Positions 7,062 to 61,554 of a DNA stretch of 64,000 bases are shown one piece after another. Location: the NCBI GenBank assembly GCA_038106145.1, contig JAYODD010000006.1:30621-94620 (forward strand), in the 5' to 3' direction. The notes under the pieces were generated by a model. It searched no databases. It was not told the origin of the DNA and saw only the letters and a list, made by a program, of their open reading frames with translations. The position numbers and the translations under genes were made by a program. Origin of the DNA: Gammaproteobacteria bacterium. Lineage in GTDB: Bacteria > Pseudomonadota > Gammaproteobacteria > Pseudomonadales > Porticoccaceae. How positions within the stretch are numbered: the stretch's first letter is position 1; every line of letters begins with the position of its first letter.

Positions 7062-7748
7062 CTAGCACTCCCAGTTAACCGGAACCTTGCCATGCGCCAC
7101 CAAATACTGATTCGCCCTGGAAAAAGGTTTACTCCCGAAAAAACCGCGGTAAGCAGCAAGCGGTGAAGGATGCGGCGCTTTCAAAACCAGGTGTCGCGCA
7201 GGATCAATGGAGCCTCCCTTGCGTTGCGCATAGCTGCCCCACAACATAAACACCAGGTTTTCGCGCCGATCGTTGAGCGCGCGGATGGCACAATCAGTAA
7301 ACTGTTCCCAGCCGCGATCCTGGTGCGAGCCGGCCTTGGATCGCTCAACAGTTAACGTGGCGTTCAGCAGCAAGACTCCCTGTTCGGCCCAATGGGTTAA
7401 ACAACCGTGCTGGGGAACGGTAATTCCCAAATCTTCTTGCAATTCCTTATAAATATTCTGGAGCGATGGCGGTATTGCTACACCCTGCGGAACAGAAAAA
7501 CACAGCCCGTGCGCCTGTCCCGGTCCGTGATAGGGGTCTTGGCCAATGATTACAACTTTTACCGCGTCAAACGGTGTGGTATCAAAAGCGGCGAACCAGC
7601 GGGAAGCCACAGGATAAATAATCTTTTTTTGCGCCTTTTCCGCGGCTAAGAACGCGCGCAACTGTGCCATATAGGGCTTGTCAAATTCTTCGCCCAGCAC
7701 CTGCAACCAGGACGGATGTAACGTTATGGAACGCTTAATAGCCATCAT
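7062..7748 (-). CDS. ung: uracil-DNA glycosylase
   Basis: 228 aa with the motifs [22 protein letters not shown] and HPSPLAA. Confidence 0.95.
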
Positions 7749-7772
7749 AAGTTACGTCATGGAGGGCGTTAA

Positions 7773-9266
7773 CTAAATGGTAGTTTCAACGCGCATATGG
7801 GGAAACAACAGTACGTCACGGATGGATGGCGAGTCAGTTAACAGCATGACCAGGCGATCGATACCAATTCCCTCGCCAGCCGTCGGCGGCATTCCGTATT
7901 CAAGCGCACGAATATAATCGGCATCGTAATGCATGGCTTCATTATCCCCCGCGTCTTTGTCCCTGGCTTGCGCCATAAAACGCTCGGCCTGATCCTCCGC
8001 ATCGTTCAGCTCGGAAAATCCATTGGCTATTTCCCGTCCGCCCACAAAAAGTTCGAAGCGATCCGTCACTTCGGGGTGATCGTCGTTGCGCCGCGCTAAC
8101 GGCGAAACTTCCGTGGGATATGCGGTAATAAATGTTGGACTCTCCAGGCGATGCTCTACGGTTTTTTCAAAAATTTCGATCTGCACCTTGCCCAGTCCCC
8201 ACGATGGCTGCAATGGAATACCCAGTTTTTCCGCCACCCCGCGGGCGCGCTCGAGTTGATCGAGATCCGCGGCCTTTAGTTGCGGATTAAATTTGAGTAT
8301 CGCATCAAATACCGACAATCGCGCAAATGGTTGTGAAAAATCGTACTCCTTGCCCTGATAGGTAACCGCAGTACTACCAAGCACCTCGCTACAGAGTGCG
8401 CGCAACATGGTTTCTGTCAGTTGCATTAAATCTCGATAATCGGCATATGCCTGATAAAACTCCAGCATGGTGAATTCGGGATTGTGGCGCGGCGACAGGC
8501 CCTCGTTGCGAAAACTACGGTTGATTTCAAACACCCGCTCAAAACCACCTACCACCAGACGCTTGAGATACAGTTCGGGGGCCACCCGCAAATACATCTG
8601 CTGGTCAAGGCTATGATGATGGGTGACGAAGGGGCGCGCAGTTGCACCACCGGGAATAACCTGCATCATCGGGGTTTCCACTTCCATAAAATCATGTTGC
8701 ACGAGGAAGTGGCGAATAAAATCGATAATTTTTGAACGTTGTTGAAACACTTTGCGAGAGTTTTCGTTGACGATCAAATCCACATAGCGTTGTCGATAGC
8801 GGGTCTCCTGATCGGCGAGACCATGATATTTTTCCGGCAGGGGACGCAGAGATTTGGTTAACAACTGGTACCGCTCAAGATTGACGTAAAGGTCCCCTTT
8901 ACCCGACTTGTGCAACACGCCCTCCACGCCCACCAGATCGCCCACGTCCCACTGCCCCCAGGTGTCCTTGATGGTTTTTTGGGCGGTTTTATCCGCGTAT
9001 AACTGCACGCGCCCCGATACGTCCTGCAGCACCATAAACGGCCCACGCCGGGCCATAATGCGGCCGGCTACACTGACCCGATGCGCCAGGTTCTCCAGCT
9101 CTTGCTTACTTTTTTCGCCATAGCTTGCCTGCAGTCTGGACGCGAAATCCGAACGGCGAAACTGGTTGGGAAAGGCATTACCCTGTGCTCTGATCGCCGC
9201 CAGTTTACCGCGGCGCTCGGCAATTAGCTGATTTTCATCCTGCGGCTTTTGGTCCTGATTGCTCAT
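7773..9266 (-). CDS. lysS: lysine--tRNA ligase (class II)
   Basis: 497 aa with class II aaRS motifs (..[20 protein letters not shown].., ..[12 protein letters not shown]..). It lies downstream of prfB, as in many gammaproteobacteria. Confidence 0.95.
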
Positions 9267-10610: not shown

Positions 10611-11003
10611 TCAGGGTAATGTTGGAATCAGCTGCGTGGTGGAGTGCAGCACCGGGCCCAGGTCTATGGCGCCGAGATCGCCAGCCAGGGGACCGGCGTC
10701 GGTAATGCCCAGCACCTCGATGCCCAGCCCGAGCGTCTGAAATCCACCGCCAAAATACTGGTTGCCAACCCCGGTTTGCGCGGCAAAGGACCCGACTCCG
10801 TCGACTATGCTGCCGGCGTTACCAAAAGCACCCCCTGCCCCCATCCCGGAACCACTGCCAAACCCGATGGTGCGGCTCGACATAAATCCATCTTCCGCCG
10901 CACGGCCGTTATCTTCTTCCGCCATGGCGAGGGTAACCCCGTGCAATGCCAAAGCTAATCCCGCGATCTTCACTAGTGTTTTTGTCCCAGTCATACATTT
11001 CAC
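10611..11003 (-). CDS. hypothetical small secreted glycine-rich protein
   Basis: 130 aa with a Sec-type signal peptide (..KIAGLALALHGVTLAMA|EED). The mature part is very Gly-rich (GFGSGSGMGAGGAFGNAGS..YFGGGFQTLGLG..) and has no Cys. It is the last gene of the ECF operon. Confidence 0.6.
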   Translation of the reverse strand: MKCMTGTKTLVKIAGLALALHGVTLAMAEEDNGRAAEDGFMSSRTIGFGSGSGMGAGGAFGNAGSIVDGVGSFAAQTGVGNQYFGGGFQTLGLGIEVLGITDAGPLAGDLGAIDLGPVLHSTTQLIPTLP

Positions 11004-11051: not shown

Positions 11052-11876
11052 TCAATAATGAAAATTGATCCCCACCGCCATCACGTGATTTTCGTAATCG
11101 GTGGCGTCAATATTCGATCGGTTGTCCTTTAGCGCGTAGGAGCCGCTTAGATACCACTGGCTACTCAAACGCTGGGTCGCCTCCACAAAATAAGTATCAG
11201 TCTTCGTTTCAAAATCGGCAGCAGTAGCAAAATCCCTTTGCGTATACGTATAACCGCCGTTGATAAAGGTATTGACCCGCACCTGGTAGCCCAACAGCAC
11301 CCCGGCGCTGGATCCGGTGTAGCTAAAATAATCGAGATCTGCATCGGCATCTTCGATATCGCCCACCAGTTTGATCCACAGTCGTGGGGTCAACTGATTT
11401 TTTATCTCCACGGTGGAGCCAAGGGAATCGGTGTCGCGGGCGCTCTGGTCTGCCTGGCGCTGTCCATTCCTGACGCTGATTTGCGCGGACCAGTCCGCAT
11501 TTAATTGCCGATACAGGCCGCCGGAGACAATCAGCGCCGAGTTATCCAGCACATCGTAGCGATCGTAACGATTGGAGATGGCACCCAGTTGCCCAACAAA
11601 ATACGTCGTTTTCGCCGCATCCAGCGCCGTATAGTACAACACTGATGCCGCTGCACTCACAAACTGGTCGGACTCTTCCTCAGCATCTCTGGCTACGCCA
11701 TTGACGTTGCTGTCGTAACCGGTTCTCACTCCCGCGTTGAAAGCCACTTCCGCCTGGGCAGAGCCGATGGCAAGGCCGAGCCATAACAACAACGATGCAG
11801 TGTTCTTAATGCCGTTATTTCGCCGGGGTGCGTGTCGTAAACTACACATCAAACTACTTCCTCTTTTTTTAAACAA
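11052..11876 (-). CDS. hypothetical outer-membrane beta-barrel protein
   Basis: 274 aa with a signal peptide (..LLLWLGLAIGSAQA|EV). It shows alternating hydrophobic patterns and Asn/Tyr/Gly-rich turns. The C-terminus ..VGINFHY ends in an aromatic residue, like an OMP beta-signal. Confidence 0.6.
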   Translation of the reverse strand: MFKKRGSSLMCSLRHAPRRNNGIKNTASLLLWLGLAIGSAQAEVAFNAGVRTGYDSNVNGVARDAEEESDQFVSAAASVLYYTALDAAKTTYFVGQLGAISNRYDRYDVLDNSALIVSGGLYRQLNADWSAQISVRNGQRQADQSARDTDSLGSTVEIKNQLTPRLWIKLVGDIEDADADLDYFSYTGSSAGVLLGYQVRVNTFINGGYTYTQRDFATAADFETKTDTYFVEATQRLSSQWYLSGSYALKDNRSNIDATDYENHVMAVGINFHY

Positions 11877-11940
11877 TTTTGCTGGTCATTTCCAACCCGG
11901 CCTGACTTCCCCACCGCTTCCGCTGCCAATCCCTGCAACA

Positions 11941-12978
11941 CTACAACGATGGTAAACCCGGGCCGGACACGTTATGCAGCGGCAATTCGCCGAGCCCTCC
12001 TCCTGGCAATCCGCCTGGCAGAGAATCACCCGGGATGGATCCACCACCCGGAACGCCAATTCCCGGCCCCCCGATTCCCCCGGGCAGCCCCGGCCGCGGC
12101 GCGACTGGCAGGCCACGTCCACCAGGTAACAAATCGGGCGTCCGCTCGCGCAGAGTTCCCGGCAGCGCTTCTGTTGCCGGTATGGGATTAGCCAGCATTT
12201 GCTGCTGCGCCGACAGAATATCCGCCACCGAGAACCCCTGCCGCAATTGGTCAGCTATCTGAAACTGCATTTGTTGCATCTGCGCAACCGACAACCCCCG
12301 CGCCAGACTGGTTTCCGTGAGCGCCAACGCCTGTTCCAGCGCCGCGCCATTAAGTAACAGCGTTTCCAGCAACTGCGCGGCGAGCGCCAATTGCTCGCCA
12401 CTATCCACCACGTAGGGTTGCGGCATATGCTGCGCCAGCTGCGTCAGGGGGTTATCCATTGCGTAGCGTCGCGTCAACACCGTGCCCAGGTTTATCAATG
12501 CTTCCCGCACGCTGGCGTTCGCTACCGCTAATCCCGATTTCTGCAGGTCCGCTAATTCCGCGCTCCGCGCACGCAGCGCCTGAGTCCAGGTCTCTGCCAC
12601 TGCGAGAATGACGTCAGCGGGAACCCTTTTCGCCATGCCTTCCAGTATTTTTCCGCGCACCAGCTCCTCCGGTATATCGGCGGCCCGCAGTATCGATATT
12701 TTTTCAATAAAATGACCCGTCGCGTCGGCGTCATAACTGCGCGTCAACGCCAGATCGAGCAGCGCCTCTAACTGCTGTGCATCCGCACCGGCCTGCAACG
12801 CAGCTGCTGCGATCTGCGCGAGCTGAACCTGTTCGGCGCTATCGTCATAGCGCCCAATTTGCTCCACCAGATGGGCGGACATTTCCTGCGCGCCCAACGC
12901 ACTGGCGACCGCCCAGAACCACAACGCCGATCCGCCCATCCAGAAACGTTTCATAATCTTGGTTTCCCTGTTACTCAT
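11941..12978 (-). CDS. hypothetical secreted protein: Ala/Leu/Gln-rich helical body plus a Pro/Gly-rich C-terminal tail
   Basis: 345 aa with a signal-like N-terminus (MKRFWMGGSALWFWAVASALGAQE). The start ATG abuts the anti-sigma stop (TAAATG). The tail reads LPGGRGLPVAPRPGLPGGIGGPGIGVPGGGSIPGDSLPGGLPGGGLG. Confidence 0.6.
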   Translation of the reverse strand: MSNRETKIMKRFWMGGSALWFWAVASALGAQEMSAHLVEQIGRYDDSAEQVQLAQIAAAALQAGADAQQLEALLDLALTRSYDADATGHFIEKISILRAADIPEELVRGKILEGMAKRVPADVILAVAETWTQALRARSAELADLQKSGLAVANASVREALINLGTVLTRRYAMDNPLTQLAQHMPQPYVVDSGEQLALAAQLLETLLLNGAALEQALALTETSLARGLSVAQMQQMQFQIADQLRQGFSVADILSAQQQMLANPIPATEALPGTLRERTPDLLPGGRGLPVAPRPGLPGGIGGPGIGVPGGGSIPGDSLPGGLPGGGLGELPLHNVSGPGLPSL

Positions 12979-13644
12979 TTACAAAACCGTAACCACGGCA
13001 TTGCGCCGGCCGAAATCATCACTCACATGCTGTTCCGCCCGCGGGTCCGTCACGATTGTTTGATCGTCGATCAAAAATGCGTACTGGTAACGACCAGCGG
13101 GCAATGGCAAATCCGCCACCCAGTTACCGTCAATCTGTCTGCGCAACGGAATTTCCTGCACACTACCCCAGCCGTTAAAATCACCGATCAATGCGACTGT
13201 GGTCGCCTGTGGTGCATACAAACTGAAGCGCGCGTGGTGAGCCTGCTCCAGCCCTACAGTTTGCACACCCGCTAACGGCACTGCCGAGTGCTGAATTGTG
13301 GAGGGGGCTGGCAGAGGGTTACCGCCAACCACAACAACCACCAGCAGTGCGACGAAAGACAGTGCGCCCGCCTCCCAACCCAGCAGCGGATGCTCCTCCA
13401 GCCACAGCCGTAGACGGCGACGCAGACCGGGTCGCAAGGGCTCGACGCGGGATACGACCTGCGCGGCAAAATTGTGTGGCACCACGACGTCCGGCAAATT
13501 CACCAACTGCTCCACGCTACGGCCCAGCGCTGTTAACTCCGCCAATTGCGCCTCGTCCAGCGATGCAACAAAATCCGCACGCTGCGCGGGGGACATCTCC
13601 CCTTCAAAATATTCAACCAGAGCTTGATCCCATGCGTCCTTCAC
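12979..13644 (-). CDS. membrane anti-sigma factor with a C-terminal periplasmic CBM48/AMPK-beta-like (glycogen-binding-type) domain
   Basis: 221 aa. The GTG start overlaps the sigma stop (GTGA) and has a GAGGAGGGG SD. It has an N-terminal anti-sigma-like helix region, one TM (ALSFVALLVVVVVGG) and the C-terminal sequence FSLYAPQATTVALIGDFNGW..DGNW..GRYQYAFLIDD..DDFGRRNAVV. Confidence 0.7.
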   Translation of the reverse strand: MKDAWDQALVEYFEGEMSPAQRADFVASLDEAQLAELTALGRSVEQLVNLPDVVVPHNFAAQVVSRVEPLRPGLRRRLRLWLEEHPLLGWEAGALSFVALLVVVVVGGNPLPAPSTIQHSAVPLAGVQTVGLEQAHHARFSLYAPQATTVALIGDFNGWGSVQEIPLRRQIDGNWVADLPLPAGRYQYAFLIDDQTIVTDPRAEQHVSDDFGRRNAVVTVL

Positions 13645-14207
13645 GACATCCCCTCCTCGCAGGCCTGCCGAAACATTTTCCTGGCGCGAAAAGCACGTAT
13701 TTTGGCATTTTCCACGGTAATCCCCAGGATGCGCGCTATGTCCTCGTTGCTGTAGCCTTCTATATGTTTAAGCACCAGCAGCTCCCGGTATTGCTGCGGC
13801 AAGGTTGCCAAAAGATGACGCACACGCTGCTGCGTCTGTTTGTCTTCTACCTGCCGCAGCGGATTCGCGGTCTCCGCTGCCGCTAGCACATCGCCATAGT
13901 CGTCGAGATCGTCGTGTATATCCTGTGCGCCACGGCGGCGCAACACATCGCGACCTCTGTTCAGGGCAATCTGACAGAGCCAGGTGGAAAACTTGCTGCG
14001 TCCGGAGAATTGCGCGAGTTTTTCGTAAGCGTTGACAAATGCCTCCTGGCACACTTCTTCACACATTGCGTAATTACCCAACAGGCGATACACCACGTTA
14101 AACACCGTTTGCTGATAACGCTCCACCAACACGCCGTAGGCCTGTTTCTCCCCATTCAGGCACACTGCGACAATTTCCTGATCAGACAGATGACGCCACG
14201 TGCTCAA
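13641..14207 (-). CDS. ECF-family RNA polymerase sigma factor
   Basis: 188 aa with a TTG start and an AAGGAA SD. Region 2 reads (..AFVNAYEKLAQFSGRSKFSTWLCQIALNRGRDVLRR) and region 4 reads (LPQQYRELLVLKHIEGYSNEDIARILGITVENAKIRAFRARK). Confidence 0.9.
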   Translation of the reverse strand: MSTWRHLSDQEIVAVCLNGEKQAYGVLVERYQQTVFNVVYRLLGNYAMCEEVCQEAFVNAYEKLAQFSGRSKFSTWLCQIALNRGRDVLRRRGAQDIHDDLDDYGDVLAAAETANPLRQVEDKQTQQRVRHLLATLPQQYRELLVLKHIEGYSNEDIARILGITVENAKIRAFRARKMFRQACEEGMS

Positions 14208-14245
14208 TGGGTATTCCTTATAGCCAGTCGGTGATGCTTGTCAGG

Positions 14246-14274
14246 TTAGACGCAGGGTCGCGTGAAAAAGTTAC
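14246..14274 (-). promoter_or_regulatory. candidate ECF-type promoter GTAAC-N17-CGTCTAA upstream of the sigma gene
   Basis: The minus strand reads CCGTAAC TTTTTCACGCGACCCTG CGTCTAA. The -10 element ends 39 nt before the TTG start at 14207. The -35 element overlaps the stop codon of the upstream lipoprotein gene. Confidence 0.5.
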
Positions 14275-14681
14275 GGAATATACAAAATATTATTGCGCCC
14301 GCCGTAGTCATCCGCTGCAATCGGCCGCAGGTTATCCGTACGGTACTCCTGGCCATCAACCAGATAGACATAATGAAAACGTTTGCCGCGCTCCGGCATA
14401 ACCATCAGCAAACGCCAATTACCCGCGCTATCCGGCCCGGTAAGCGCCAGACCCGGCGGTGCCCAGCCATTGAAATCCCCCAACAACGCCACACTCCGAG
14501 CCTGGGGCGCCTGCAATTCAAACTGCACCTGCCGCTCTCCACTCGCTGCCATTGGCGTGCGTTTAGATACGCAGCCGCTGGCAACTATAAGGCATACCAG
14601 CGCTATTATTTTGCTGGCGATAACCGCGGGTCTGCGTGGAATCATAGGTAGTTGTTCATGGCCCTTGCTCGTCATCGACAT
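14271..14681 (-). CDS. lipoprotein with a CBM48/AMPK-beta-like domain, paralogous to the anti-sigma C-terminus
   Basis: The ORF is 136 aa. A more likely start is the ATG at 14645 (MIPRRPAVIASKIIALVCLIVASG|C, lipobox-like). The domain reads FELQAPQARSVALLGDFNGW..AGNW..KRFHYVYLVDG..DDYGGRNNIL. Confidence 0.65.
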   Translation of the reverse strand: MSMTSKGHEQLPMIPRRPAVIASKIIALVCLIVASGCVSKRTPMAASGERQVQFELQAPQARSVALLGDFNGWAPPGLALTGPDSAGNWRLLMVMPERGKRFHYVYLVDGQEYRTDNLRPIAADDYGGRNNILYIP

Positions 14682-14829: not shown

Positions 14830-14858
14830 GTAACCAAAATCGCTATACCCCCGTCACA
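14830..14858 (+). promoter_or_regulatory. candidate ECF-type promoter GTAAC-N17-CGTCACA upstream of the divergent gene
   Basis: The plus strand reads TGTAAC CAAAATCGCTATACCCC CGTCACA. It ends 30 nt before the ATG at 14889. The core and spacing match the motif at 14246-14274. Confidence 0.5.
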
Positions 14859-14888: not shown

Positions 14889-15863
14889 ATGCAACATCAA
14901 TTCAATAAATTATTACTGGCCACAGTTATCAGCGCATCCGTCGTCACCTCCGCGTACGGCGCCACCGATGGCAACGCTGCGGTTGCACTTGACCAGCGCG
15001 CCCAGGCAAGCGCCGACGCCGCACAGGCACTACAGGACTCGCCTGATGTGCCACTGACAACCGAGCAAACCCTGGATACTGCTGCCGACGCGCGGGATCA
15101 GGCCACACAACATATCAGTGCTGCCACCCAGACAGCAGGAACTTTACAACAAGCGTTAACCACCGATCTGGATGGGGCAGATGCACAACTCTCTGCCACG
15201 GCGAATGGCGCCCTGGCTGCGGCGAGCGAACTTTCCGGTGCAGGCGGTAGCGTACAGGAACAAATACAGGGCGACGCCAATCATACTGCCGATGCAGTAA
15301 TCTCAGACTTACGCAGCGCACAAATGACGAATGCTGACGGCACTAGCTCGGCGCGCGCCGGGATTGCCGGCGGCAGCTCAGTGGCAGGAAAGCTATTGCA
15401 AATGGGCCAAACCGCGACCGCAAGCCTGTCTAACCAAACCAGCGCCACCATGCAGGACGAAGTGCGAGGTGCAGACACCGTCGCCAGTGGAGCCGCTGGC
15501 CTATCTCAATCTGTACTGGGCCAGGTGGAATCATCGGAAACCGCCCCGGAGCTCGCGAGTGGACAGGCATTGCCTGAGTTGCCTGTCGACGATGCCCTGC
15601 CAGCAGCACCGGATACCTCACTGCCAACTCCAGAAGTGGCTGTGAATAGTCGCGCACAGGCAGACGTTTCCGCTGGTGCGGGCCTCACCGCGGATGCTCA
15701 ACGTGTCAACCTCAACACCCAGCAACGGATGCAAACGGATGTCGGTTTCAGCAGCGCTGGCAGAGGTAACGCCACCACCACACTGGGCTCCTCTATCGGT
15801 GGCAGTGTGGGCGGCATAACATCCGGGACGAGTGTCCTCGGCACCGGTTCGCTGCTACGCTAA
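14889..15863 (+). CDS. hypothetical secreted low-complexity (Ala/Thr/Ser/Gln/Gly/Asp-rich) protein
   Basis: The ORF is trimmed to the ATG at 14889 (MQHQFNKLLLATVISASVVTSAYG|ATDG), which gives a signal peptide. The mature protein has no Cys, Trp or Tyr and a single Phe. A terminator follows. Confidence 0.6.
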   Translation: MQHQFNKLLLATVISASVVTSAYGATDGNAAVALDQRAQASADAAQALQDSPDVPLTTEQTLDTAADARDQATQHISAATQTAGTLQQALTTDLDGADAQLSATANGALAAASELSGAGGSVQEQIQGDANHTADAVISDLRSAQMTNADGTSSARAGIAGGSSVAGKLLQMGQTATASLSNQTSATMQDEVRGADTVASGAAGLSQSVLGQVESSETAPELASGQALPELPVDDALPAAPDTSLPTPEVAVNSRAQADVSAGAGLTADAQRVNLNTQQRMQTDVGFSSAGRGNATTTLGSSIGGSVGGITSGTSVLGTGSLLR

Positions 15864-40897: not shown

Positions 40898-41356
40898 TCA
40901 CCAACAGTAAGCGGCGGTTTCGGTGGCACCGCCAGTCACACTCTTTACGCCCAGCGAAGACAACTGTAACGTTTGGCAGCGCGTATCGTCCGCCTGGGCC
41001 AACTGGGGCACCGCCTGCAACGTAAAAGCCGTTGCTGTCGCCCCAGCCGCCAATTGTATAATGTAAATGCGACTGCCATCTGCCGCTGGAACAGTCTCGC
41101 CATCGCTACCGATGCCATAAGTTGCGGCAGGATAGCCCAGATCTGTTAACACGGTGGCATAACGTTTATTGTTTACAAAAAACTGTTCCTGGCGGGCCTG
41201 CACTTTAACTAGCTCACCCGCCGCCAAACTACGACGTGTTTTGATGATTTGGTCCCTGTAATTTGGCAACGCCACCGCAACCAAAATACTAATCACCACT
41301 ATCGCTATCATCATTTCGATCAGCGTAAAACCCTGGCTTTTCAATCGGTTGTTCAT
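40898..41356 (-). CDS. pilE: type IV pilin-like protein PilE
   Basis: 152 aa with the prepilin leader and motif MNNRLKSQG|FTLIEMMIAIVVISIL. It is the last gene of the minor-pilin operon. Confidence 0.85.
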   Translation of the reverse strand: MNNRLKSQGFTLIEMMIAIVVISILVAVALPNYRDQIIKTRRSLAAGELVKVQARQEQFFVNNKRYATVLTDLGYPAATYGIGSDGETVPAADGSRIYIIQLAAGATATAFTLQAVPQLAQADDTRCQTLQLSSLGVKSVTGGATETAAYCW

Positions 41357-60311: not shown

Positions 60312-61554
60312 CCGCCTCGTGCGCGGTAAATAATTCCGCCAGGGATCGATTATATAACTGCCGCGTTTCGCGGCTGCCCGCCGCGATAACATTAGCCAGC
60401 GGGTCGAACCAGGAGTAAGCCGCCAATACGTTTTTCGCATCAGTGGACGGCTCGGTCACAAAATTGTCCCCGAACAGGGTTACCAATTCCCACAAAGTCA
60501 ATTGCGCCGGGTCCCGCGCGAGCACGTACCCTCCGGACGCGGTAGTCACCAGCACGTTACCCGCCAGCAGTATGCTGCGCAATTTCCGCCAGTGCTGTTC
60601 ATCGATGCCGCAGTGCAGTACATCCCTATCGCTCATACTGCGGCCGTCTTGCTGGCCCCGCCAACAGGCCCAACACACCAGCACCGCCGCCACCAGATTG
60701 GGGAAATTGTACCCCTTGTACGCCGCCTTAAACGTTTCCAGAGAGCGCACCAATTCCGCGCCGCCGAGAATAATCATCCAGCACAGATAGGTCCACAGTA
60801 AAAACACGGGTACGATGGCAAACGCGCCATATACGGTATGGTAGGAGCTATTGACCACCAGCGCGCCAAACGCCGCCTTGGCCGACTGGAACAACAGCAT
60901 CGACACCAGGCCGCCCACCAGCGCATGACGGCCGGATACTTTGCAGTTCGGCACGGCGATAAACAGCAGTGTGAACGCGATCCATGTCATTAACCACGGT
61001 AAATATTCGAGAACCTGGTGGGGTATCCCGACGATCTCCACGCCGCTGGCAACCAGTTTGAACGATAGTAAATAGGTGTGCATCATCAGGCCGACCCCCA
61101 ACAGTAACGGCCCAAAACTCAAAATCCCCCAGTACAGCAGAAAACTCGACAGTCCTTTGCGACCGCCCGCCGTTCCCCAAATGTGGTTGAAGGTTTTTTC
61201 GATATTGGTCAGCATCAAGTAGGAGGTGACGATAAGAATAAATCCGCCAAACGCGCTCAATTTGCGTGCCTGAGTCGAAAACTGGGCCAGGTAGCGTTGT
61301 ACTTCGGTGCCACTTTGGGGCAGCAAGTTTTCGAAAATCAGCCCCTGCACCTGATCGCCCAGGCTTTGAAATGCGGGGATCAATGAAAACATCGCATAGG
61401 TAACGGTCATTAGCGGCACCACCGCGAACAGGCTCATGTAGGTCAGCGCGGCCGCACTTTCGTTACAACCGTCACGCCGATACCGACGCGCAAGGTGAAC
61501 GACAAAACTGCCCACCATGGAACAAAAAGATTTTACCGCCGTAAACCACTTCAC
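60289..61554 (-). CDS. YihY/BrkB family inner-membrane protein
   Basis: ..RYRRDGCNESAAALTYMSLFAVVPLM.. followed by multiple TM segments and a soluble tail of about 120 aa. The start is placed at the GTG at 61554 (GGGGAG SD). An ATG at 61518 is an alternative. The ORF-track start at 61650 gives an implausible N-terminus. Confidence 0.8.
   Translation of the reverse strand: MKWFTAVKSFCSMVGSFVVHLARRYRRDGCNESAAALTYMSLFAVVPLMTVTYAMFSLIPAFQSLGDQVQGLIFENLLPQSGTEVQRYLAQFSTQARKLSAFGGFILIVTSYLMLTNIEKTFNHIWGTAGGRKGLSSFLLYWGILSFGPLLLGVGLMMHTYLLSFKLVASGVEIVGIPHQVLEYLPWLMTWIAFTLLFIAVPNCKVSGRHALVGGLVSMLLFQSAKAAFGALVVNSSYHTVYGAFAIVPVFLLWTYLCWMIILGGAELVRSLETFKAAYKGYNFPNLVAAVLVCWACWRGQQDGRSMSDRDVLHCGIDEQHWRKLRSILLAGNVLVTTASGGYVLARDPAQLTLWELVTLFGDNFVTEPSTDAKNVLAAYSWFDPLANVIAAGSRETRQLYNRSLAELFTAHEADDANAIR

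Follow-up and report, generated by a model that had tools for sequence, protein, structure and literature searches.

In this work we analysed a 64,000-nucleotide stretch of contig JAYODD010000006.1 from a gammaproteobacterium of the family Porticoccaceae (the window), in which six co-directional genes were called as open reading frames (ORFs) on the minus strand between 10611 and 14681 (Table 1). Read in the direction of transcription, they encode a small protein with a CBM48 domain, an extracytoplasmic function (ECF) sigma factor, an anti-sigma factor that ends in a second CBM48 domain, a secreted helical protein, an outer-membrane beta-barrel candidate and a Gly-rich secreted protein. This work confirms that the two CBM48 domains are true paralogues of the CBM48/AMPK-beta fold, and places them in a conserved gene module.

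An earlier reading of this DNA, made from the letters alone (the sequence-only reading), had quoted peptides from both domains, all of which were found where it had placed them on the minus strand, and had aligned the anti-sigma C-terminus with the body of the upstream lipoprotein. The alignment stands in a pairwise check: BLASTP matches residues 136–220 of the 221-residue anti-sigma factor to residues 50–135 of the 136-residue lipoprotein with 31/87 identities (36%, E = 9e-15), and comparison of the family profiles of the two proteins gives a probability of 99.7% (E = 1.2e-26). The fold proposed there, CBM48/AMPK-beta, was likewise recovered by profile and by structure prediction. Both proteins exceed the Pfam gathering scores of CBM_48 (PF02922; 42.3 bits for the anti-sigma factor and 25.8 for the lipoprotein, cut-off 22.4) and of AMPK1_CBM (PF16561; 35.5 and 27.9 bits, cut-off 26.8), and the NCBIfam matches of the CBM part of the module proteins are all partial ones, to the GlgB N-terminal module. 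AlphaFold2 models a seven-strand beta domain at residues 137–220 of the anti-sigma factor (pLDDT 82–86) and the small-protein domain at a pLDDT above 90, and for both models, each domain taken singly, Foldseek ranks the CBMs of AMPK beta1/beta2 first (target-normalised TM 0.80–0.89, root-mean-square deviation 1.4–2 Å, identity 26–34%). A profile built from 88 anti-sigma homologues also matches AMPK beta CBMs (E = 2.5e-7), the top sequence matches within the PDB are pullulanase and GlgB, and a whole-genome scan found no CBM48-like sequences beyond these two. The sensor domain thus belongs to CBM48/AMPK1_CBM by profile and by fold, not demonstrably by function. In a search of 1.84 billion representatives, high scorers were GH13 amylases and pullulanases that carry arrays of the CBM48 module; other proteins from this search have four to eight CBM48 repeats joined to GH13 or TPR domains, and one of 1812 residues (P0115) has 17–18 tandem CBM48/AMPK1_CBM repeats with no GH13 catalytic domain detected.

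Table 1. Features of the module and of the divergent gene next to it (positions in the window)
Feature	Coordinates	Strand	Basis
Small CBM48 protein, 136 residues, here a lipoprotein	14271..14681	-	ORF; CBM_48 and AMPK1_CBM over cut-off
ECF-type promoter motif GTAAC-N17-CGTC before the sigma gene	14249..14274	-	Motif scan
ECF sigma factor, 188 residues, TTG start	13641..14207	-	Sigma70_r2, Sigma70_r4_2, TIGR02937
Anti-sigma factor, 221 residues	12979..13644	-	Pfam, RsiW profile match, AlphaFold2 topology, Foldseek
Secreted helical protein, 345 residues, Pro/Gly-repeat tail; third module gene	11941..12978	-	Conservation
Outer-membrane beta-barrel candidate, 274 residues	11052..11876	-	BBP2_2 similarity in the family
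Gly-rich secreted protein, 130 residues; last module gene	10611..11003	-	ORF; positional counterparts
Second copy of GTAAC-N17-CGTC, towards the divergent gene	14830..14855	+	Motif scan
Divergent low-complexity secreted protein, 324 residues, predicted regulon member	14889..15863	+	ORF; motif upstream

The sigma factor contains regions 2 and 4 only (Pfam Sigma70_r2, 4.6e-17; Sigma70_r4_2, 4.4e-16) and scores 101.2 bits against the superfamily model TIGR02937 (NCBIfam cut-off 42.9), which together place it among ECF sigma factors (sigma-70 group 4); no NCBIfam equivalog cut-off was reached, so that it is given no named subgroup. The start of the anti-sigma gene overlaps the sigma stop codon (GTGA, 13641–13644). 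In the AlphaFold2 model the anti-sigma factor is composed of a helical N-terminal domain (about residues 1–84, with helices at 4–14, 19–28, 31–48 and 59–66), a transmembrane helix (90–106), a disordered linker (107–135) and the periplasmic CBM48/AMPK1_CBM domain (136–221, encoded at 12982–13239). The 88-homologue profile matches RsiW (5wuq_C) at residues 5–74 (E = 4.5e-5). The zinc motif of ZAS domains, HxxxCxxC, was not found, the N-terminal domain having neither a Cys nor a Pfam match to zf-HC2, and PF13490 was seen only in a distant relative (P0109). Because of the RsiW profile match, the gene overlap and the single membrane helix, the protein is, as judged from its sequence, a class I anti-sigma factor of RsiW/RseA type without the zinc motif, and from family membership only it would be expected to bind the sigma factor and to release it by regulated proteolysis. 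In one anti-sigma factor of the Sulfuriferula type (P0084, 286 residues, L086:6001–6861), about 65 residues of the N-terminal anti-sigma domain are tandemly repeated, the anti-sigma profile matching residues 8–75 and then again from residue 74.

Homologues of the anti-sigma factor form 109 clusters, in which the named relatives, at 40–50% identity, come from Sulfuriferula, Thiobacillus and other betaproteobacterial metagenome-assembled genomes (MAGs). Nine proteobacterial loci were compared: the window, those of six named relatives, one from a Porticoccaceae MAG (82% identity) and one from another genome of the class, G430 (37% identity). The order small CBM48 protein, ECF sigma factor, anti-sigma factor with CBM48, helical protein, barrel is found in 9/9 of them. 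Sizes are also similar, with a small protein of 104–136 residues as called (a 158-residue ORF in G430), a helical protein of 313–365 residues, a barrel of about 260 residues and then at least one small Gly-rich protein. The flanking genes are unlike in every locus, which indicates that the module moves as a unit, and the conserved pairing makes a functional link between the two CBM48 domains likely. The distribution of the module is rare and patchy: it is present in four of the five genomes of the window's genus and in one of 400 genomes sampled evenly across the class, and it was not found in 19 other genera sampled from the family. In G430 (contig C29, locus L090), the trio of small CBM48 protein, sigma factor and anti-sigma factor occurs twice with identical scores, at 7390–9213 and 11621–13444, 4.2 kb apart; only a stub of the helical gene follows the second copy. 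The doubling reflects either tandem duplication in the recent past or a repeat created by the assembly.

In a maximum-likelihood tree of the domains (about 85 residues), the proteobacterial anti-sigma domains (support 99/99), the small proteins (100/98) and the Gemmatimonadota partner domains described below (98/91) form three clades. The anti-sigma and small-protein clades each hold all loci and their internal branching is congruent, which implies that the duplication is older than the spread of the module and that both genes moved as a pair. Of the two, the small protein changes about 2.5 times faster; the tree paths from the window clade to the Sulfuriferula-type loci measure about 1.4 for it and 0.5–0.6 for the anti-sigma domain.

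The small protein of the window has a signal peptide and a lipobox (LIVASG↓CVSK), followed by a linker of about 14 residues and by the CBM48 domain (residues 50–136, encoded at 14274–14534). Its designation as a lipoprotein in the sequence-only reading holds here as a prediction, but is limited to a genus-level clade: by reading of the sequences the lipobox Cys is present in the window, in P0110 and P0112, and at loci L001 and L087, whereas the five Sulfuriferula-type loci (L081–L086) and G430 encode plain signal peptides with no fitting Cys and, by prediction, soluble periplasmic proteins. In Escherichia coli, the lack of Asp at position +2 suggests sorting to the outer membrane; since no Asp is found at +2 in the window, the small lipoprotein of this genus is probably tethered to the outer membrane. 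A word-based search gave only five homologues of the small protein, and the family was assembled from the loci instead. The window's small protein matches only CBM_48 and AMPK1_CBM, with no match to the MucB_RseB fold or family.

The same reading had located a promoter at 14246–14274, and the motif GTAAC-N17-CGTC indeed lies at 14249–14274 on the minus strand, 67 nucleotides ahead of the sigma start. It precedes the sigma gene in 9/9 loci, and its GTAAC contains the TAA stop of the small gene (14271–14274), an overlap also seen in L001 and L087. The motif has four matches in the window against 1.1 expected. The copy at 14830–14855, 34 nucleotides ahead of the divergent gene, is kept in place in L001 and L087; the other two matches, which lie inside ORFs and have a shorter spacer (GTAAC-N16-CGTC), at 40966–40990 on the plus strand in an ORF of 152 residues and at 60536–60560 on the minus strand in one of 453, are probably due to chance. 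In the beta-type loci the motif is also found before genes for Gly-rich and other small exported proteins, and the predicted regulon consists of envelope or exported proteins rather than of sugar-active enzymes. The strict motif was found within 300 nucleotides upstream of the small CBM48 gene in 0/9 loci. Because the motif is missing there, synthesis of the small protein is predicted not to depend on sigma activity, which would fit an input component better than an output. A sigma-70 consensus scan returned no promoter for this gene and was uninformative.

The remaining proteins of the module are less readily assigned. The ATG of the helical gene lies immediately 3' of the anti-sigma stop codon, and its product, kept in all proteobacterial loci, has no informative match in Pfam or the PDB; the only PDB match below 0.01, to an Hsp70 tail, was set aside as low-complexity. 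Its tail is made of irregular (L/I/F)PGG repeats in all proteobacterial loci (11944–12185 in the window, with counterparts in L081–L086), and in L082 and G430 proteins of 201–237 residues encoded further downstream weakly match its C-terminal part, tail included. The barrel candidate is conserved within the module. BBP2_2 matches six of eight members of its family (best E = 7e-6), the window's own protein scoring 21.1 bits, under the cut-off of 23.7; its one NCBIfam match, to a PEP-CTERM-associated outer-membrane family, is weak (E = 0.0012) and far under the cut-off. The Gly-rich protein, for which Pfam gave no match, has counterparts of 103–130 residues at the same position in related loci. 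The divergent gene, whose start at 14889 corresponds to the Met at residue 80 of a long ORF, encodes a protein that matched no Pfam or NCBIfam family.

The same design is found in other phyla. Eighty loci were collected with degenerate CBM patterns and then scanned with the family profiles. Most match only through the CBM, many of them being GlgB-type genes, and L001 is the only full-length relative; about 20 of the 80 show an ECF sigma factor followed by an anti-sigma factor of 174–248 residues that ends in CBM48. The non-proteobacterial loci come mainly from Gemmatimonadota, with single ones from Acidobacteriota, Fibrobacterota, Atribacterota and Bipolaricaulota, and our searches recovered the core of sigma factor and CBM48-bearing anti-sigma factor from at least six phyla. 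A further CBM48 occurs in 14 Gemmatimonadota loci, at the C-terminus of a neighbouring protein of 354–567 residues, which combines a signal peptide with a beta-rich body and which matches only CBM_48 and AMPK1_CBM in Pfam. The ORF directly after the anti-sigma gene in these other phyla is homologous to the helical protein of the window (hhalign probability 98.1%, E = 7e-14, over 150 columns), and helical proteins across phyla have in common the motif LEGxAK(R/G)VP and a Pro-rich tail; outside the Proteobacteria this tail is rich in PPxP. In one Gemmatimonadota MAG (L021, 6294–7997) a single ORF of 567 residues joins a helical protein to a beta-rich CBM48 carrier: its residues 34–200 are 42% identical to the helical protein of locus L007 (E = 2e-30) and its residues 395–567 are 34% identical to the CBM48 carrier of that locus (E = 2e-19), where the two are separate genes. 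From this fusion, the second CBM48 and the helical protein may be taken to act in one complex; the case stands alone, comes from an assembled metagenome, and is either genuine or an assembly or frameshift artefact.

Our best reading is that the module forms the input side of an ECF system for envelope signalling, one that is conserved but uncharacterised. For the way in which it senses, we favour, with a probability of roughly 40%, a two-part envelope sensor in which the small CBM48 protein acts as a co-sensor whose synthesis does not depend on the sigma factor. According to this model, the anti-sigma factor would hold the sigma factor at the inner membrane, while the small CBM48 protein, the helical protein and the barrel would form the outer half of the sensor. 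Contact of this outer half with the anti-sigma CBM48 domain, either direct between the two modules or through an envelope polymer, would keep the anti-sigma factor stable and the system off. A disturbance of the envelope would break the contact, the anti-sigma factor would be removed by regulated proteolysis, and the freed sigma factor would transcribe, from GTAAC-N17-CGTC promoters, the operon that encodes it and the genes of a few exported proteins rich in Gly/Pro. The signal would more likely be an envelope component than glycogen or starch. In favour of the co-sensor we count the paralogy and fold of the two domains, the RsiW match, the recurrent gene order amid differing flanks, the congruent clades of the tree, the distribution of the motif, the recurrence of the design in other phyla, the homology of the helical proteins and the L021 fusion. 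The CBM of AMPK-beta, moreover, binds the surface of a protein as well, namely the N-lobe of the kinase. Several observations weigh against this model. Outer-membrane tethering is predicted not to be universal, since the small protein lacks a lipid anchor in the Sulfuriferula-type loci and in G430. The tree does not settle the order among the three clades, including the relation of the small proteins to the Gemmatimonadota partners, so that the pairing may have more than one origin. When the Gemmatimonadota carrier bodies are compared by profile with the module barrel, the probability of homology is 0.2%, and the argument from the fusion cannot be extended to the barrel by sequence. The charges of the paired CBM48 domains show no pattern of complementarity in 21 loci. 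Finally, the promoters and the regulon are motif predictions only.

The sequence-only reading had gone further and suggested that a carbohydrate ligand may control the sigma factor, which is not established: the glucan site of AMPK is kept only in part, the genome contains no glucan genes and the predicted regulon belongs to the envelope. The positions of AMPK beta1 in contact with glucan are, as we take them from the cyclodextrin complex, W100, K126, W133, L146 and N150. The equivalent of W100 is present in 88/88 anti-sigma factors and 10/10 small proteins, and that of N150 in 81/88 and 10/10. At the K126 position Ala (87/88) or Val/Ile is found, and at the L146 position Phe or Tyr. The second stacking residue, W133, is Trp in 70/88 anti-sigma factors and Ile in that of the window and its genus, and is Tyr (5) or Arg (5) in the small proteins. 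The segment TDPRAEQHV.DDFGR.NAV, which aligns with the glucan-binding hairpin of AMPK, is among the best conserved stretches of the domain. The Trp of FNxW is a hallmark of the family and also occurs in CBM48 modules without known binding. In the genome (2.75 Mb, 98.9% complete), no match to Alpha-amylase (GH13), Glyco_transf_5 (GlgA, GT5) or Phosphorylase (GlgP) was found; osmoregulated periplasmic glucans, considered as a ligand, were discarded as the genome has no MdoG match. The host thus appears, from its gene content, to lack both glycogen/starch metabolism and osmoregulated periplasmic glucans.

Some other envelope glycan is a possible ligand, and the foremost alternative is that both CBM48 domains bind the same periplasmic or envelope glycan without touching each other. 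An exported polysaccharide intermediate, peptidoglycan strands or a sugar related to lipopolysaccharide could play this part; occupancy would set the stability of the anti-sigma factor, and the free copy would buffer, deliver or compete for the ligand. That both domains pass the CBM_48 and AMPK1_CBM thresholds, that the W100 equivalent never varies and the N150 equivalent rarely does, that the hairpin is strongly conserved and that GH13 enzymes with CBM48 arrays score high in the representative search all speak for such a ligand, as does the resemblance of the barrel to BBP2_2 and, weakly, to the PEP-CTERM-associated family, both of which occur in exopolysaccharide loci. Nevertheless, the Lys and the second Trp of the site are replaced as described above, no sugar-active enzyme is encoded in the module or under its promoter motif, and no candidate glycan pathway adjoins the module. 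We regard a shared glycan as possible, with the odds against it.

A more specific proposal is that the homologous CBM48 modules make direct contact across the periplasm, the first at the outer membrane and the second on the anti-sigma factor, helped by the helical protein, and so report on envelope integrity or spacing. The outer module would be held by a lipid here and by a larger secreted protein in Gemmatimonadota. This seems doubtful to us at present; if true, it would define a new class of trans-envelope signalling that spans several phyla and in which a 'sugar-binding' fold is reused for protein contact.

It is improbable that the small protein is a bystander, that is, an ordinary envelope protein born of a duplication of the anti-sigma C-terminus and kept by linkage. 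Its faster evolution, the variation of its anchoring between clades and the position of its gene in what the motif suggests is a separate transcription unit would be expected of a bystander; on the other hand, across the nine loci it occupies the identical position despite an identity of only 35–38% and unrelated flanks, its family keeps 24 invariant positions, and a second CBM48 carrier accompanies the anti-sigma factor in a distant phylum too. Classical alpha-glucan or maltodextrin sensing, with a sigma factor that answers starch or glycogen sugars captured by the lipoprotein, draws on the AMPK glycogen-binding modules as nearest solved folds and on the pullulanase and GlgB matches, but is very unlikely given the incomplete AMPK site, a genome with only two CBM48 domains and without GH13, GlgA or GlgP, and a module and predicted regulon of envelope proteins without any sugar-active enzyme.

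The preferred reading, a two-part envelope sensor, bears on a wider question, as ECF sigma/anti-sigma pairs are a major route of sensing for which the input signal is known for a few groups only. The module offers a well-defined sensor fold, a free partner paralogous to it, a helical protein that is conserved and a predicted regulon that is both small and clean. Finding the periplasmic target of the CBM48 domain would show whether the fold works outside alpha-glucan binding, and could reveal a new form of envelope monitoring in Gram-negative bacteria. Because a cultured organism, Sulfuriferula plumbiphila (AP021884), carries the module, the question can be tested at the bench. The sequence-only reading knew of no characterisation of the architecture, and in this it was right in part. 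In a literature search no paper connecting anti-sigma factors to CBM48, AMPK-type or early-set domains came up, and the accessible part of the paper on ECF reclassification (PMC7826278) mentions neither CBM48 nor AMPK nor glycogen; anti-sigma sensors of the carbohydrate-binding type are, however, known from the RsgI/SigI systems of Clostridium thermocellum, where carbohydrate-binding sensor modules are part of the anti-sigma factors (PMC10328401, PMC6852018). This work contributes the proteobacterial form of the module, in which the second CBM48 stands alone, the placement of the gene for that domain outside the sigma-dependent motif, a lipid anchor confined to one clade, homology between helical partners of different phyla and a host genome that appears to lack alpha-glucan metabolism.

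The module may be compared with several known systems. SigW–RsiW of Bacillus subtilis and SigE–RseA–RseB of E. coli each consist of an ECF sigma factor and a single-pass class I anti-sigma factor subject to regulated proteolysis, RseB being a periplasmic partner that shields RseA. As in both systems, we find a sigma factor with Sigma70_r2 and Sigma70_r4_2 regions, an overlapping anti-sigma gene and one transmembrane helix; the N-terminal anti-sigma domain matches RsiW (5wuq), there is a putative autoregulatory ECF-type promoter and, as for SigE–RseA–RseB, additional periplasmic proteins are encoded alongside. The periplasmic domain here is a CBM48/AMPK-beta beta-sandwich unrelated to the ectodomains of RsiW and RseA, and the protein has no zinc cysteines. 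The free partner does not have the RseB/MucB fold but is paralogous to the sensor domain, and it is encoded upstream of the sigma promoter, not inside the operon. SigI–RsgI shares with the module a membrane anti-sigma factor with an extracytoplasmic module of carbohydrate-binding type (PMC10328401, PMC6582324, PMC6852018). RsgI differs by its SigI-type sigma factor, its own N-terminal fold, its autoproteolytic juxtamembrane domain and its CBM3, CBM42 or PA14 modules; it occurs in Gram-positive bacteria, where it governs cellulosome enzymes, and is not accompanied by a free paralogue. None of the RsgI/SigI families was matched in Pfam scans of the window sigma and anti-sigma factors. As it lacks the domains that define them, the module is not counted as a member of either the RseB-type or the RsgI-type systems. 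The CBM of AMPK beta (PDB 1Z0M, 4YEF, 4CFE) has the same fold, FNxW tryptophan and binding-hairpin Asn, but is eukaryotic, cytosolic and part of a kinase, and its glucan-site Lys and second Trp are not kept here. By analogy only, FecA–FecR and RcsF–IgaA also pair, as is predicted here, an outer-membrane-associated module with the periplasmic domain of an inner-membrane regulator; in contrast with them, the present module has no TonB-dependent transducer, FecR/STN domains or Rcs components, and its partner domains are homologous to each other. In conclusion, the module is real and conserved, an unpublished variation on a well-known scheme of signalling.

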